Under the pieces are notes generated by a model. That model ran no database searches, was not told the DNA's origin, and was given only the letters and a program-made list of their open reading frames with translations. This document shows positions 56,719 to 61,763 of a stretch of 64,000 nucleotides of DNA, piece by piece; within the stretch, counting starts at the first letter, position 1; every line of letters starts with the position of its first letter. The translations under genes were made by a program, and so were the position numbers. Origin of the DNA: Burkholderiales bacterium (GTDB lineage: Bacteria > Pseudomonadota > Gammaproteobacteria > Burkholderiales > JACQAP01); assembly GCA_035275265.1 (NCBI GenBank), contig DATENC010000017.1, positions 6,442 through 70,441 of the forward strand, read 5' to 3'.

Positions 56719-56750
56719 AAAAAACGAAAGCCCCGCGAAGGGGCTTTCGT
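56719..56750 (-). terminator. Intrinsic terminator/attenuator between pqqA and pqqB
   Basis: 11-bp stem ACGAAAGCCCC/GGGGCTTTCGT, 5-nt loop, followed on the minus strand by a T run. Confidence 0.8.
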
Positions 56751-56767
56751 CCAAGCCCAACCCGGAA

Positions 56768-56839
56768 TTAGCGGTTGGCAATGTACATCGTGACTTCAAA
56801 GCCGAAACGCATTTCGGTGTACTCAGGCTTGCTCCACAT
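56768..56839 (-). CDS. pqqA: PQQ precursor peptide, copy 1 ([23 protein letters not shown])
   Basis: 23 aa, E-x3-Y core, GGAGA RBS, upstream of pqqB. Confidence 0.97.
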
Positions 56840-57006
56840 AGTCTTCTCCAAGTTTGAGGTTGAATTTCGCGGGAAAGGCCCGCTCTTTGCCGAATCATCC
56901 GACACTGGCCGCGCCCAGAACGCTGCGCAAAACCGGTATCCGACGAGTCCGCAGGCATTGTGCGCGTAGGCGGTACGAATCCGCACACGAAAATCAGCAT
57001 TTGACT

Positions 57007-57023
57007 CTCATGATTATCATGAG
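57007..57023. promoter_or_regulatory. Candidate operator: perfect palindrome CTCATGAT-N-ATCATGAG
   Basis: 8-1-8 inverted repeat in the AT-rich pqqA/tonB divergent gap; 15/17 copy at 61506-61522. Confidence 0.6.
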
Positions 57024-57073
57024 TTTTACAATGAATCTTTACTTGGCTCAAGGCCTTGCACTACGCTCTAAGC

Positions 57074-58027
57074 ATGTCTGACACCGCACTCGACAGAGGG
57101 TTTTATTTTGCTTTGCCAATGACCGATTGGTACCGCGATCGGCCCTTCAGGGTGGCCTTCGTGGCGTCGCTGCTTATACATGCGGCCCTTATCGCGCTGA
57201 TTCCTGGTTTTCGTGCGGTGGTGTTCGAGCCCTCCAAGGTTCTTGACGTCGAAATCATTGTTCCTGAGCCACCGCCGGCGCCGACGACGACGGAGAGAAG
57301 CCTGCCACCTCCGCAGCGAATAGTCGAAGAAACTCCATTGCAACCGGAACCGAAAGTCGAGCCGCCCCCGGAGCCACTATTGCGGCAGCCGGAACCCGAG
57401 CCTCCACCGATTCCGCGAGCGGAGATCGCGCCGCCGCCCGCACCAGTGGTAGTGCCAAAGGCGGAACCGCGGATCGAGCCGAAAAGCGAAATCACGCCAG
57501 AGCCCAAAATCGAGCCGCGACCTGAACCGCCGCCGGTTGCGCGCGTGGAACCGTTGCCCGAACCCCGCACGGAAATACTGCCCGACCAGCAACCTGTTCC
57601 CCGAGTGGAGCCGCCTCCGCCCGTCGAGCAGGCAACGGTTCCACCTGCACCGGTCGTTGCCACCCCGGTGCCTCCCCCCGCACCCCCGCAGCCGGTGGCG
57701 CGGAAGAAAGAGCCCGATAGGGCCGTGGAGCCCCGACTGCTGCTGACGTACGGCCTGTCGATCTCAAATGAAATCAAGCGTTATCAGAAATATCCGCCGA
57801 TGGCGCAACGCAAGGGCTGGGAGGGCACTGCGGAGGTGCTTCTGCAGATTGACGCGGATGGTAAAGTCACCAGAATTACACTGGGCAAGAGCAGCGGACG
57901 ATCGGTTCTCGACGAAGAAGCGCTCAACATGGTGCGCAAGGCTTCGCCACTGCCGCCGGCGCCGCAAGACCTGCGTGGCCGCGAACTTACCGTGACCGTG
58001 CCGATCGTCTTCAAATTGCAATCCTGA
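57074..58027 (+). CDS. tonB: Energy transducer TonB (start 57074 or 57119)
   Basis: TM anchor SLLIHAAL, long Pro/Glu-rich linker, YPPMAQRKGWEG...SSGRSVLDEEAL...VPIVFKL. Confidence 0.9.
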   Translation: MSDTALDRGFYFALPMTDWYRDRPFRVAFVASLLIHAALIALIPGFRAVVFEPSKVLDVEIIVPEPPPAPTTTERSLPPPQRIVEETPLQPEPKVEPPPEPLLRQPEPEPPPIPRAEIAPPPAPVVVPKAEPRIEPKSEITPEPKIEPRPEPPPVARVEPLPEPRTEILPDQQPVPRVEPPPPVEQATVPPAPVVATPVPPPAPPQPVARKKEPDRAVEPRLLLTYGLSISNEIKRYQKYPPMAQRKGWEGTAEVLLQIDADGKVTRITLGKSSGRSVLDEEALNMVRKASPLPPAPQDLRGRELTVTVPIVFKLQS

Positions 58028-58046
58028 ATCTCTTCGCTCGCCCGGC

Positions 58047-59030
58047 ATGGTCGTGGATCAGAACCAAGCCAGCGGCGAAGCCCTTTTTCCTCGTATTGAA
58101 CCCTACCGAAAAGATTGGCTTGATGTCGGTGGCGATCATCGCGTCTATTTCGAGGAAAGCGGCAATCCCGCGGGATTCCCCGTGTTGTTCGTCCACGGCG
58201 GCCCGGGAAGCCGGTCGCGCCCGGCGCATCGCCGTTTTTTCGACCCCTCCTTTTACCGCATCGTGTTGTTCGATCAGCGTGGATGCGGACAGAGCACGCC
58301 TTCCGGTTCAATTGTAGAAAACACCACCTCGCATCTGGTGGCCGACATCGAGCGATTGCGCCACTATCTGGGCGTGGATCGATGGCTGCTGTTCGGAGGC
58401 TCCTGGGGCAGTACACTGAGCCTGGCCTATGCAATTGCTCATGCGGACCGGGTTGCAGGGATGGTGTTGCGCGGCGTGTTTCTTGGCAGCGCCACGGAAA
58501 TCGAGTGGTACGTTTCCGGAATTCGGCGTTTTGTACCCGAGGCTTGGACGGAGTTTGCCCGCGATGCGGGCGAGTCCATCATCGAATACTATCGGCAACT
58601 AATCGATCACCCCGATGTGTCGATTGCGCTGGTGGCGGCCCGGCGCTGGTACGACTATGAAGCCAGGATCATGGCGATCGGGGAGGTCCCGAATGGCGGT
58701 GATGGCAGCGGCAATGTCGCGACGGCCGAGGAATTGCTGGCGAGTGCCAGAATCCAGCTCCATTTTCTGGCTCATCAGTGTTTTCTGCAGCCGAACCAGT
58801 TGCTTGATGATCTCTGGCGGATCGGCGAAAAACCGATAGCCCTGGTGCAAGGCAGAATGGATATGGTGTGCCCACCAATCAGTGCATTTGAGGTGTCGCG
58901 GCGGCTTGCCGGCGCGGAACTGCGTCTGGTAGCCAATGGCGGCCACTCCGCACTGCAGCCGGCGATCGCCGCGGAATTGTGCGCGGCGACCACACGCATG
59001 CGCGATCTTCTGGGCGGGTTCCGCCGATGA
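58047..59030 (+). CDS. pip: Proline iminopeptidase (S33)
   Basis: HGGPG, DQRGCG.STP, FGGSWGSTL, VQGRMDMVCP, GGHS. Confidence 0.92.
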   Translation: MVVDQNQASGEALFPRIEPYRKDWLDVGGDHRVYFEESGNPAGFPVLFVHGGPGSRSRPAHRRFFDPSFYRIVLFDQRGCGQSTPSGSIVENTTSHLVADIERLRHYLGVDRWLLFGGSWGSTLSLAYAIAHADRVAGMVLRGVFLGSATEIEWYVSGIRRFVPEAWTEFARDAGESIIEYYRQLIDHPDVSIALVAARRWYDYEARIMAIGEVPNGGDGSGNVATAEELLASARIQLHFLAHQCFLQPNQLLDDLWRIGEKPIALVQGRMDMVCPPISAFEVSRRLAGAELRLVANGGHSALQPAIAAELCAATTRMRDLLGGFRR

Positions 59031-60793
59031 AGAAATTCGGCCTGCGCTTTCGCATCAATTTCGTGATTACGCTGGTCATTGTGCTTTTCGCGTTTGCCGC
59101 CTCCGACGTTCTGATCGAGGAAACGCGCCGTTCCATCCGGGAAGAGGTCGAGGCGGGCACCAAGGTTACCGTGCAACTGATGGAAACCGTCATCGTCAAC
59201 ACCCGGGCCAATGCACAAAGCGGTCCGTACAACCAGGCGTTGCTGTCGTTCCTGCGCCACCTCGGTCGAGTACGTGCCAACGAAATCAAGATGTATGACG
59301 AGAATGACCAGTTGATCTACACTTCGCCGCCATCCCAGTACAAACACGGCAAGTGGGCGCCGGACTGGTTCACCCGTCTGGCGGAGCCGAAGATCGGCGA
59401 GTTCCGGTTGAATCTTCCGAACGGCGCGGTTGTGATCACGCCGGACGCTTCGAGGTCGATCCTCGATGCCTGGGACGATCTCAAGAGTTTCTTCTGGTTA
59501 GTGCTTGGATTTTTCGTGCTGGTCAATGTGTTGGTGTTCTGGCTTCTGGGTCGGTCTCTGCGGCCCATCGGAAAAATTCTGGGCGGCTTGTCCGAAATGG
59601 AGAAGGGCCGCTTTGGCACGCGGTTGGCGAGATTTGACCTTCCCGAATTTGACGCGATCAGCCACACCTTCAACCGCATGGCGGAGAATCTCGAACGGAG
59701 CCTTGCTGAAAATCAGCGCCTTGCGCTGGTCGCAAAGCAATCCAGCGATGCCATCATCATCCATGACCTCGAAGCGCGCATTTCGTTCTGGAACCCGGCC
59801 GCGGGCCGCATGTTCGGCTATCGTGACGATGAAATCGTGGGCCGTTCTGCTAGTCTGCTCGCCCCGCCGGAACGCCAAGCCGAAATCCAGGACAACCTCG
59901 ATACGGTCATGCGGCGTCAACTGGTCGAAAGGGTGGAGACCCAACGCCTGACCAAGGATGGCCGGATGGTCGATGTCGCGCTATCGGCGGCGCCCCTGGT
60001 GGATCCGGCGAGCGACCAAGTGATCGGTGAAATTTGCAGCATGCGCGACATCACCGAACATAAACTGGTGCGCCTTACCGAACGCGAGCTCGAGCAGAAT
60101 CGAAAACTCACCCAGTTGATCCAGATCAGGCTGGAGGAAGAGCGCCGCTCGATCGCGCGCGAACTTCACGATGAACTCGGGCAATGCGTAACGGCGATCA
60201 AGACCATCGGTACGGCGATTTCCAACCGCACTCGCGAAAACGCACCTGAGATCCATGGCAATGCGCAGACGATCGTTTCCGTGGCCACGCACATTTACGA
60301 TGTGGTGCACGGGATCATTCGCCAGTTGCGGCCCACGGCGCTGGACCACCTAGGCCTGAGCGCGACGCTGAAGGAGACTGTGGCGGCATGGCGGGAGAGG
60401 CACAAAGGGATCGACTGCGAACTCAGGCTTCAGGGCGAACTGGAGGGACTGGGCGAAACGCTCAATATCACCATTTACCGCATCGTCCAGGAATGCCTGA
60501 CCAACGTCATTCGCCATTCCGCCGCGACGCGCGCGGACATAGTGGTTGCGCGTGAAGGCGACGTCGGCCTTGGCGACGTGGTCAGGGTGACGGTGCGCGA
60601 CAACGGTAAAGGCATCGCCCAGCGCAATGAGCGTGACGCTACCAGATTCGGCCTGATGGGGATGCGCGAGCGCGTTCAGGCACTCGACGGGATATTTCAG
60701 ATCGACAACCGGCCGGGCGAGGGCGTGACGGTGACCGCTGTGATCCCGGCAAAGGCGACCCCCGTTGCGACCGGCGGGGTGGAAGCCGCATAG
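59027..60793 (+). CDS. Sensor histidine kinase (periplasmic sensor-HAMP-PAS-HisKA_3), MoxY/MxcQ-like
   Basis: Two TMs, HAMP, WNPAAGRMFGY PAS, ERRSIARELHDELGQ, QECLTNVIRH, DNGKG, GLMGMRER. Confidence 0.9.
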   Translation: MKKFGLRFRINFVITLVIVLFAFAASDVLIEETRRSIREEVEAGTKVTVQLMETVIVNTRANAQSGPYNQALLSFLRHLGRVRANEIKMYDENDQLIYTSPPSQYKHGKWAPDWFTRLAEPKIGEFRLNLPNGAVVITPDASRSILDAWDDLKSFFWLVLGFFVLVNVLVFWLLGRSLRPIGKILGGLSEMEKGRFGTRLARFDLPEFDAISHTFNRMAENLERSLAENQRLALVAKQSSDAIIIHDLEARISFWNPAAGRMFGYRDDEIVGRSASLLAPPERQAEIQDNLDTVMRRQLVERVETQRLTKDGRMVDVALSAAPLVDPASDQVIGEICSMRDITEHKLVRLTERELEQNRKLTQLIQIRLEEERRSIARELHDELGQCVTAIKTIGTAISNRTRENAPEIHGNAQTIVSVATHIYDVVHGIIRQLRPTALDHLGLSATLKETVAAWRERHKGIDCELRLQGELEGLGETLNITIYRIVQECLTNVIRHSAATRADIVVAREGDVGLGDVVRVTVRDNGKGIAQRNERDATRFGLMGMRERVQALDGIFQIDNRPGEGVTVTAVIPAKATPVATGGVEAA

Positions 60794-60807
60794 CTGGAGG
60801 AGTCGGG

Positions 60808-61464
60808 TTGAACAGCAAAGCAGCGGGCGGTGGAATCGGCGTCATGTTGGTGGATGATCATGCGGTCGTGCGCATGGGATTCAGGCTTTTGCTGGAAGGA
60901 TCGGCCGACATCAAAGTGGTTGCCGAAGCCGAAAGCGGCGAGGACGCGTGTCGCAAGTTTCCGGAAATCAGACCGGATGTCGTGGTCATGGACATCTCGA
61001 TGCCGGGGATCGGAGGCCTGGAGGCGATTGACCGCATCCTGGCGCGTGAGCCGACGGCGCGCATCCTGGTGTTGTCCGCGCATGAGGATGCGATGCATGC
61101 GCGACGCGTTCTGAAAGCCGGTGCTGCCGGATACCTTACCAAACGCAGTGCGGCGGAAGCCTTGATGCAGGCGATCCGGCAGGTTCACCAGGGCAAGACT
61201 TTCCTGGAACCGGAAATCGCCCAGCAGATGGCGGTGCAGCAGGTCAACGGCGAACGCAATCCGCTCGACATGCTGAGCGAAAAGGAATTCAAGGTATTTC
61301 TGGCGCTCGCGAAGGGACAGTCGGTGGCCGATATTGCCGGCGTCATGTCGTTGAGCCCTCGCACAATCGGCACCCATCTATACAACATCAAGCAGAAGTT
61401 GGGGGCATCGAACTCTGCCGAATTGGCCATCATTGCGATTCGCGCAGGCCTTATAGAACCTTGA
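60808..61464 (+). CDS. NarL/LuxR-family response regulator
   Basis: MLVDDHAVVRMG, DVVVMDISMPG, GYLTK, LSPRTIGTHLYNIKQKL. Confidence 0.93.
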   Translation: MNSKAAGGGIGVMLVDDHAVVRMGFRLLLEGSADIKVVAEAESGEDACRKFPEIRPDVVVMDISMPGIGGLEAIDRILAREPTARILVLSAHEDAMHARRVLKAGAAGYLTKRSAAEALMQAIRQVHQGKTFLEPEIAQQMAVQQVNGERNPLDMLSEKEFKVFLALAKGQSVADIAGVMSLSPRTIGTHLYNIKQKLGASNSAELAIIAIRAGLIEP

Positions 61465-61505
61465 TTATTAAAGAAAATTCTGCCGCCAGACTGGGTTGGG
61501 CAATT

Positions 61506-61544
61506 CTAATGAAAATCATGAGCCGGATTTCAGTGTTTTCTTGT
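61506..61544 (+). promoter_or_regulatory. Second copy of candidate operator upstream of pqqA copy 2
   Basis: CTAATGAA-A-ATCATGAG, then 13 nt, then TTTTCTTGT; same layout as upstream of pqqA copy 1. Confidence 0.55.
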
Positions 61545-61643
61545 AGGGTCTGGCACTGGGCTCCAACAGAATACGTTCCAAGGTCGTGAGGAAGCGGCCG
61601 TGAACACCGATGAAGTGGATTAACTCTCTAAAGGAGCTTCACC

Positions 61644-61715
61644 ATGTGGACCAAACCCGAATACACCGAAATGCGCTTTGGCTTTGAAGTCACGATGTAC
61701 GTCTTCAATCGCTAA
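61644..61715 (+). CDS. pqqA: PQQ precursor peptide, copy 2 ([23 protein letters not shown])
   Basis: Read manually, below ORF-track cutoff; AAGGAG RBS, E-x3-Y core, downstream terminator. Confidence 0.96.
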   Translation: MWTKPEYTEMRFGFEVTMYVFNR

Positions 61716-61736
61716 ATAGCACTGCAAGTCCCGAAG

Positions 61737-61763
61737 GGCTGCTTTCGAGCAGCCTTTTTTTTT
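61737..61763 (+). terminator. Intrinsic terminator after pqqA copy 2
   Basis: GGCTGCT-TTCG-AGCAGCC followed by a long T run. Confidence 0.88.

Follow-up and report, generated by a model that had tools for sequence, protein, structure and literature searches.

Regulators that combine REC and GerE domains bind inverted repeats as dimers. At the uhpT promoter of Escherichia coli, as worked out by the Kadner laboratory, the regulator UhpA reportedly occupies a strong site near -64 and a weaker, proximal site that reaches the -35 region, where no good -35 hexamer is found, and the result is said to be activation. How is the synthesis of pyrroloquinoline quinone (PQQ) regulated? The mechanism has been called unclear even in model Gram-negative bacteria (PMC9851590). 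Compared by description, the nearest functional analogue of the system treated here is AgmR/ErbR (also PedR1) of Pseudomonas, which the passages of PMC12997753 on which we draw present as a LuxR-type response regulator with the ped cluster and pqqFABCDE as the targets of activation; they name no binding motif for AgmR. Here we examine a 64,000-nucleotide stretch of DNA (the window; contig DATENC010000017.1, positions 6,442 to 70,441) from an uncultured betaproteobacterium of a rhizosphere metagenome, in which two copies of the PQQ precursor gene, pqqA1 and pqqA2, bracket a tonB-pip-kinase-regulator unit and are each preceded by the same palindrome. This palindrome is a real and widely conserved control site and, as far as comparison of sequences can tell, it is very probably the site where the adjacent two-component regulator binds to switch on PQQ precursor synthesis.

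How does this locus compare with the described systems? Like AgmR, as that regulator is presented in the same passages (PMC12997753), it places a LuxR/NarL-type response regulator above PQQ biosynthesis genes; there, however, a multi-kinase cascade is tied to alcohol oxidation, whereas here a simple kinase-regulator pair lies beside pqqA. By domain content the regulator belongs to the NarL/FixJ family. Its nearest solved structures are VraR/LiaR, ChrA, NarL, and DevR, with full-length matches to VraR, NarL, and DevR. The likeness to UhpA/uhpT extends from the proteins (a REC and GerE regulator with a HisKA_3 kinase) to the predicted promoters, which have a palindrome near -65, a degenerate copy near -42, and no -35. 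Nevertheless, the regulator scores 127.3 bits against a UhpA cut-off of 258 and is not in the UhpA orthologue group; the operator sequence is another one, pqqA takes the place of a sugar-phosphate transporter as the target, and there is no evident CRP site. Membership in the GacA/UvrY (204.8 bits against an NCBIfam cut-off of 280), NarL (117 against 250), and ErdR (63.6 against 390) orthologue groups was rejected as well. The 7-2-7 sites of NarL/NarP, the RcsB box, the DevR box, and the sites of VraR/LiaR are likewise inverted repeats bound by dimers of the same fold; in contrast to the TACYYMT half-site of NarL/NarP and to these other boxes, the half-site here is CTMATGA in a 7-3-7 arrangement, and the putative regulon is pqqA plus a periplasmic redoxin.

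How exceptional are the two palindromes within their own genome? The one ahead of pqqA1 (O1) lies in the divergent pqqA1/tonB-like intergenic region, and the one ahead of pqqA2 (O2) begins 41 nucleotides (nt) past the stop codon of the response regulator gene. A sequence-only reading of the window had singled out both, each followed by a TTTTCKTGT-like string. All four of its strings are in place, the palindrome that it had called perfect at 57007-57023 indeed has 8-1-8 symmetry, and the gap of 13 nt from palindrome to TTTTCKTGT is the same at pqqA1 (56985-56993, ACACGAAAA; minus-strand TTTTCGTGT) and pqqA2 (61536-61544, TTTTCTTGT). It had also put O1 about 50 nt before the divergent tonB-pip-kinase-regulator unit; the distance from the end of O1 to the tonB-like ATG is 51 nt. 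A degenerate form of the palindrome has four matches in the window (two sites, both strands), compared with 0.07 expected from shuffles. Over the whole 4.38-Mb genome, a weight matrix returned only three strong sites, with scores of 27.7-31.3; O1, at 31.3, is the top of the genome, the next site scores 21.2, and the remainder score 18 or less. The regions upstream of pqqA1 and pqqA2 do not align outside the shared motifs; the shared blocks must therefore have been maintained by selection. Recent promoter duplication is ruled out by these unalignable flanks together with the occurrence of the same modules, with free spacers, in 109 promoters (see below). We also rejected a terminator of the regulator operon, or an RNA element, because the palindrome is found in divergent intergenic regions and before orphan pqqA genes as well, and because metatranscriptome contigs never span it. 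Full-text searches of a literature library found no account of this motif or operator.

How widely is the arrangement conserved? All 25 genomes of the genus have the order pqqA1, tonB-pip-kinase-regulator, pqqA2, and all 25 carry the palindrome with at most one mismatch at both pqqA copies; a third, divergent pqqA-like paralogue in the genus is without it. The sequence-only reading had suggested looking for the motif upstream of pqqA in relatives, and it is present there. Of 41 relatives, 18 contain the composite ATCATGAG-N{10,16}-TTTTCNTGT; its spacer is N13 in every case, each match precedes a pqqA open reading frame by about 100 or 146 nt, and a reversed control of the composite gave zero matches. 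A total of 109 distinct pqqA promoters with the palindrome (consensus CTMATGAWWWTCATKAG) come from uncultured Burkholderiales, Pseudohongiella, other Gammaproteobacteria, and Panacagrimonas. In 80 loci fetched around regulator orthologues of 65-96% identity, a pqqA gene within 6 kb has the palindrome 82-243 nt upstream, a few copies being degenerate or mismatched. The lineages in which palindrome and pqqA are linked in this way are uncultured Burkholderiales, Pseudohongiella and other Gammaproteobacteria, and Panacagrimonas perspica. In five Methylophilaceae genomes, most copies of the motif precede dispersed orphan pqqA genes by about 100-130 nt. A different palindrome, TGGTTGC-N2-3-GCAACCA, stands about 225-233 nt upstream of pqqA in loci L207/L237 (G137), L228 (G143), and L233 (G059), from gammaproteobacterial genomes without an orthologue of the regulator; it may be the operator of another pqqA regulator.

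What kind of promoter does the palindrome serve? We aligned 109 unique pqqA promoters, anchored on the palindrome. The outer CT...AG positions of the palindrome are nearly invariant, and in 105 of the 109 an nAnA[AC]T hexamer begins 44-46 nt past it; read as a -10, this hexamer would place the palindrome centre near -65. No sigma-70 -35 hexamer is present. A profile of similarity to the operator has a sharp peak 7 nt past the palindrome (9.9/17, against a background of about 5), where a T-run and neighbouring positions are conserved, and one Methylophilaceae promoter has an intact TCATGA half-site. From the position of this peak, a second and degenerate copy of the operator is centred near -42, and TTTTCKTGT is best read as its right part. 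Two other identities were discarded: TTTTCKTGT is not a -35 or extended -10, since the 22 nt that separate it from the conserved -10-like hexamer are too many for a -35, and TGGCAC at 61551-61556 is not part of a sigma-54 promoter, as it is followed by TGGGC-TCCA with no GC at -12, has the wrong spacing, and is unconserved in relatives.

Metatranscriptome contigs from soil and river lend weak support to the predicted promoters, with which they agree; the contigs are assembled and strandless, and their ends are trimmed by assembly. The pqqA1 contig covers 56703-56912 with zero mismatches, and there is no RNA signal in these data at 56916-57060. The pqqA2 contig starts at 61594, with no signal at 61470-61590. 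Contigs thus begin downstream of the predicted start sites, by 15-38 nt in the window and by 12-14 nt at a Methylophilaceae pqqA locus, and at none of these loci does a contig span the palindrome.

Which protein recognizes the palindrome? In the linked lineages no regulatory module other than the kinase-regulator pair keeps its place beside pqqA. Orthologues of the regulator (61-96% identity) adjoin pqqA in several lineages while the intervening genes differ: beta-type loci have both tonB and pip, and the Pseudohongiella locus L113 has pip only. Among 16 other families of the order, the genomes with an orthologue (61-80% identity) and those with the motif before pqqA are the same three; one pqqA-containing genome without an orthologue is also without the motif, and 12 genomes have neither. 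A set of 200 further class-level family representatives, one genome per family, was too sparse for a positive test of co-occurrence, with a single distant orthologue (54% identity, in G053), and served as a negative control. Although pqqA is present in 28 of the 200, all 200 are without the exact motif, and none has a regulator above 54% identity. Within the genome under study, a GacA-like paralogue is 49% identical to the regulator and has a different helix (LSYKTVANY...).

The distant orthologue of G053 is informative in its own right. The gene for this 54%-identical regulator lies directly upstream of pqqA, where the palindrome is TTAAGGATAATCCTGAG and, at the first of the G053 promoters, the T-run and -10 spacing are unchanged. 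The pqqA promoters of the G053 family carry yTmAGGAAAATCCTkAr at the equivalent position, and the adjacent regulators, where fetched, have LSPKTVGTH[HYN]T[NT]IKQKL, compared with LSPRT[IV]GTHLYN[IL]KQKL in 11 of 11 aligned regulators from ATGA-type lineages. In the G053 clade, that is, the operator has gone from ATGA/TCAT to AGGA/TCCT and the helix from LSPRTxGTHLYN to LSPKTVGTHHTN. The two operator changes, T5 to G and A13 to C, are symmetric partners, as expected from a change in the half-site specificity of a dimeric protein. We take the helix position of the Y-to-T change to be that of the base-contacting lysine of NarL in the NarL-DNA complex. Synteny, co-occurrence, and covariation together support the proposal of the sequence-only reading that these elements are the candidate binding site and promoter layout of the NarL-type regulator. 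A hybrid operator, CTAAGGAAAATCATTAG, with an AGGA-type left arm and a TCAT-type right arm, was found on two contigs of an uncultured betaproteobacterium (L097 and L098), 82 nt upstream of pqqA; a regulator of 85% identity with an ATGA-type helix is encoded 3 kb away.

The reading that we favour, at a probability of roughly three in four, is that CTMATGAWWWTCATKAG is the high-affinity operator of the adjacent NarL/FixJ regulator (60808-61464), which would be partnered with the kinase (59027-60793) and activate pqqA. A phosphorylated regulator dimer would sit on the distal palindrome, centred near -65, and the regulator would also occupy the degenerate copy centred near -42, standing where the -35 box is missing. 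It would recruit RNA polymerase to a promoter whose sole element is a -10 (CACAAT or CAGAAT) and would in this way activate pqqA1-pqqBCDE, the stand-alone pqqA2, and, outside the window, a gene for a periplasmic redoxin. Physical binding, activation as the sign of control, the exact start sites, the kinase signal, and autoregulation of the divergent unit are what we infer.

Several points weigh against this reading. The operator centres are 23 base pairs apart, which is not an exact two helical turns, and the -65 and -42 positions rest on the predicted -10 and on the ends of metatranscriptome contigs. Genomes may share regulator and motif partly because they share ancestors or received the whole cassette in one transfer, which confounds the co-occurrence in part; in Methylophilaceae, where the regulator is unlinked to its presumed targets, co-occurrence alone makes the link. 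The covariation of operator and helix amounts essentially to one evolutionary event inherited by many genomes, and it could be a coincidental, clade-level divergence. Finally, the sites match the Fur consensus GATAATGATAATCATTATC at 12 (pqqA1) and 14 (pqqA2) of 19 positions.

Could the palindrome belong to some other, unlinked transcription factor that tracks the same lineages, the adjacent system controlling, for example, the TonB/pip unit? A regulator gene that lies beside no site in Methylophilaceae, and a covariation that comes down to a single event, would both sit comfortably with such a factor. However, across Burkholderiales, Pseudohongiella and related gammaproteobacterial metagenome-assembled genomes, Panacagrimonas, and the G053 family, the only DNA-binding protein linked to pqqA is this regulator. 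Moreover, the exact motif is missing from all 200 family representatives, which have no close orthologue of the regulator, and recognition helix and operator are invariant in the same lineages, the helix being altered where both half-sites are altered. We consider an unlinked factor improbable.

The resemblance to the Fur consensus suggests another possibility, namely that the palindrome is a box for a Fur-family protein (responding to iron or another metal) and that pqqA and the tonB-like gene are metal-repressed. Shared features are an A/T-rich palindrome and an ATGA...TCAT core; in addition, a tonB-like gene lies beside O1, and a NicO-like metal transporter gene is preceded by a weaker look-alike, TTCATGATTTTCATGAC. 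The differences concern outer positions, location, gene set, phyletic distribution, and the clade-specific symmetric variant. The near-invariant outer CT...AG is not Fur-like, and 12 and 14 of 19 positions fall short of a close match to the consensus with its outer GATAAT arms. In pqqA promoters the site centre is near -65 rather than over the -35 and -10, where Fur represses, although for the divergent tonB-like gene O1 may overlap a -35. The strong sites precede pqqA1, pqqA2, and the redoxin gene only, not iron-uptake genes, and the Fur-box-like sites that this genome does have, by its bacterioferritin and FTR1 genes, are direct repeats of the AATGAnAATGATT type. Most gammaproteobacterial genomes have Fur regulons, and yet the exact motif was found in 0 of the 200 other-family gammaproteobacterial genomes. 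The symmetric switch from ATGA to AGGA in one clade would also need a change in the specificity of Fur. Overall, a Fur box strikes us as far-fetched.

Is the sign of regulation right? The adjacent regulator might bind the palindrome but repress, or control no more than the divergent tonB-pip-kinase-regulator unit to which it belongs, instead of activating pqqA. O1 does overlap a possible plus-strand -35 (TTATCA, 57014-57019), followed by a possible -10 (TTTACT, 57038-57043), and a AAACTTTACTTA stretch is conserved in beta-type loci. Yet pqqA2 and the dispersed pqqA genes of Methylophilaceae have the same site without a divergent gene, the kinase-regulator operon of Methylophilaceae is without a site, and the promoters lack a -35 and have the site upstream of the polymerase footprint, as is typical of activator-dependent ones. 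Repression or pure autoregulation is in our judgment very unlikely. Autoregulation of the divergent unit through O1, in addition to activation of pqqA, is plausible, as the sequence-only reading had suggested, because only 51 nt separate O1 from the tonB-like ATG and because the possible -35 overlaps O1. No site occurs within 6 kb of the Methylophilaceae kinase-regulator operons, so it would not be a general property.

What else might the regulator control? The third strong site of the genome, ATCATGATTATCATGAG (G000:C29:73737-73753; L241:2238-2254), lies outside the window and has both the T-rich module and a CAGAAT at offset 45. It stands about 115 nt upstream of a Redoxin/AhpC-TSA gene with a signal peptide (L241:2369-3001), and the arrangement is kept upstream of the orthologue in four further species of the genus (G001, G004, G011, and G009) and in another family (G027). 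The sequence-only reading had proposed scanning for enrichment ahead of xoxF, exaA, and pqq genes; the expectation held for pqqA1 and pqqA2 but not for xoxF/exaA, the redoxin site being the only other strong one. In the whole-genome weight-matrix scan, no strong site lies ahead of the quinoprotein dehydrogenase genes of this genome.

Other occurrences of the motif were noted. In three Methylophilaceae genomes (loci L185 of G041, L183 of G042, and L167 of G043, each near position 1500), the palindrome lies between or upstream of two genes, one for a Gly-zipper protein of 229-237 residues and the other (clear in L185 and L167) for a pentapeptide-repeat protein of 342-353 residues, both with hydrophobic N-termini. 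This divergent pair looks like a second conserved target beside pqqA. The look-alike TTCATGATTTTCATGAC (G000:C4:23145-23161; L279:2501-2517; score 21.2) is located between a DUF1800 gene and the NicO-like metal-transporter gene, whose NicO match is below the Pfam cut-off, and has a possible -10 at offset 49 versus 45. Weaker matches at G008:C233 and G013:C185 look like chance and are without a promoter-like layout, and one at C18:12563 overlaps the start codon of a lipoprotein gene.

Coordinates of the genes and of the observed and predicted control elements in the window
Feature	Position	Strand	Basis and remarks
pqqA1	56768..56839	-	23 residues; PF08042, 40.3 bits; heads pqqBCDE
GC-rich hairpin and T-run after pqqA1 (putative terminator or attenuator ahead of pqqB)	56720..56752	-	sequence reading
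Predicted -10 CACAAT, pqqA1 promoter	56957..56962	-	hexamer alignment; predicted start site ~56950
Degenerate proximal operator copy, pqqA1 (predicted)	56984..57000	-	ATGCTGATTTTCGTGTG, 12/17 to palindrome; centre ~-42; includes TTTTCGTGT
Operator O1	57007..57023	.	perfect palindrome CTCATGAT-T-ATCATGAG (plus-strand letters CTCATGATTATCATGAG), 8-1-8
TonB-like gene, first of unit divergent from pqqA1	57074..58027	+	TonB_C PF03544, 74 bits; TIGR01352
Prolyl aminopeptidase (pip, S33 alpha/beta hydrolase)	58047..59030	+	TIGR01249, 300 bits, over cut-off
Sensor histidine kinase	59027..60793	+	transmembrane segment, ~120-residue loop, transmembrane segment, HAMP, PAS, HisKA_3, HATPase (Pfam, hydropathy)
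Response regulator, REC and GerE (NarL/FixJ type)	60808..61464	+	PF00072, 103 bits; PF00196, 55 bits; helix LSPRTIGTHLYNIKQKL
Operator O2	61506..61522	+	CTAATGAAAATCATGAG; weight-matrix score 30.7
Degenerate proximal operator copy, pqqA2 (predicted)	61529..61545	+	TTCAGTGTTTTCTTGTA; centre ~-42; includes TTTTCTTGT
Predicted -10 CAGAAT, pqqA2 promoter	61567..61572	+	hexamer alignment; predicted start site ~61579
pqqA2	61644..61715	+	23 residues; PF08042, 41.7 bits; stand-alone, own ribosome-binding site
Intrinsic terminator after pqqA2	61735..61763	+	GGGCTGC-TTTCGA-GCAGCC and T9; kept in all pqqA2-type loci

The membrane kinase matches the UhpB/NarX class, its top NCBIfam match being UhpB, and its loop, which lies between two hydrophobic segments, is predicted to be periplasmic. 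This HisKA_3-class kinase is encoded in the same operon as the regulator, with 14 nt from the end of its gene to the regulator gene. The receiver pocket of the regulator (LVDDH and VVVMDISMPG) is kept in all aligned orthologues, and the Asp in MDISMPG is presumably the phospho-acceptor. The pip stop codon overlaps the kinase ATG (ATGA), and in the Pseudohongiella locus L113 (3640-5993), too, a pip-like hydrolase is encoded ahead of the kinase; the peptidase thus appears to be part of the kinase-regulator module, and it is conceivable that the prolyl aminopeptidase has a role in PqqA processing.

Elements next to the two pqqA genes are also conserved. Behind pqqA1 we identified pqqB, pqqC, and pqqE; the intervening hairpin and T-run are kept in aligned pqqA1-type loci (L009 and L010), and the RNA contig stops at 56703. 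The 5' leader of pqqA2 (61600-61643) is conserved across related loci as CAAGGTCGTGAnGAAGCGGCC ... TTAACTCTCT-N-AAGGAG. Its CTCT run could pair with the GGAG of the ribosome-binding site, a hint that the leader may control translation.

A NarL-type activator that acts on an inverted repeat is a textbook mechanism. What the locus supplies for the regulation of PQQ synthesis is a concrete candidate operator, a promoter geometry, and a candidate sensor-regulator pair. A broader and more tentative proposal, which we rate as possible but doubtful, is that kinase, regulator, and operator make up a circuit dedicated to PQQ supply that has not been described before, in which the loop of the kinase reports periplasmic PQQ or apo-quinoprotein and which exists in two orthogonal specificity classes. 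The kinase would then set pqqA transcription together with that of a periplasmic thiol-redox protein. Such a circuit would operate in several Beta- and Gammaproteobacteria, among them the methylotroph-named Methylophilaceae. Its two classes would be ATGA/TCAT with ...RT.GTHLYN... and AGGA/TCCT with ...KTVGTHHTN..., operator and helix having changed together.

What would the finding mean for PQQ-producing bacteria? Some of the genera that conserve operator, geometry, and pair have members in culture (Methylobacillus, Methylotenera, Methylophilus, Panacagrimonas, and Pseudohongiella), which makes the proposal testable with standard genetics, and the natural pairing of operator and helix specificity could serve as a set of orthogonal parts. 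Judging from the third site, a periplasmic redoxin may be regulated together with PQQ supply. In methylotrophs, the same operator may explain how many dispersed pqqA copies come under one control.

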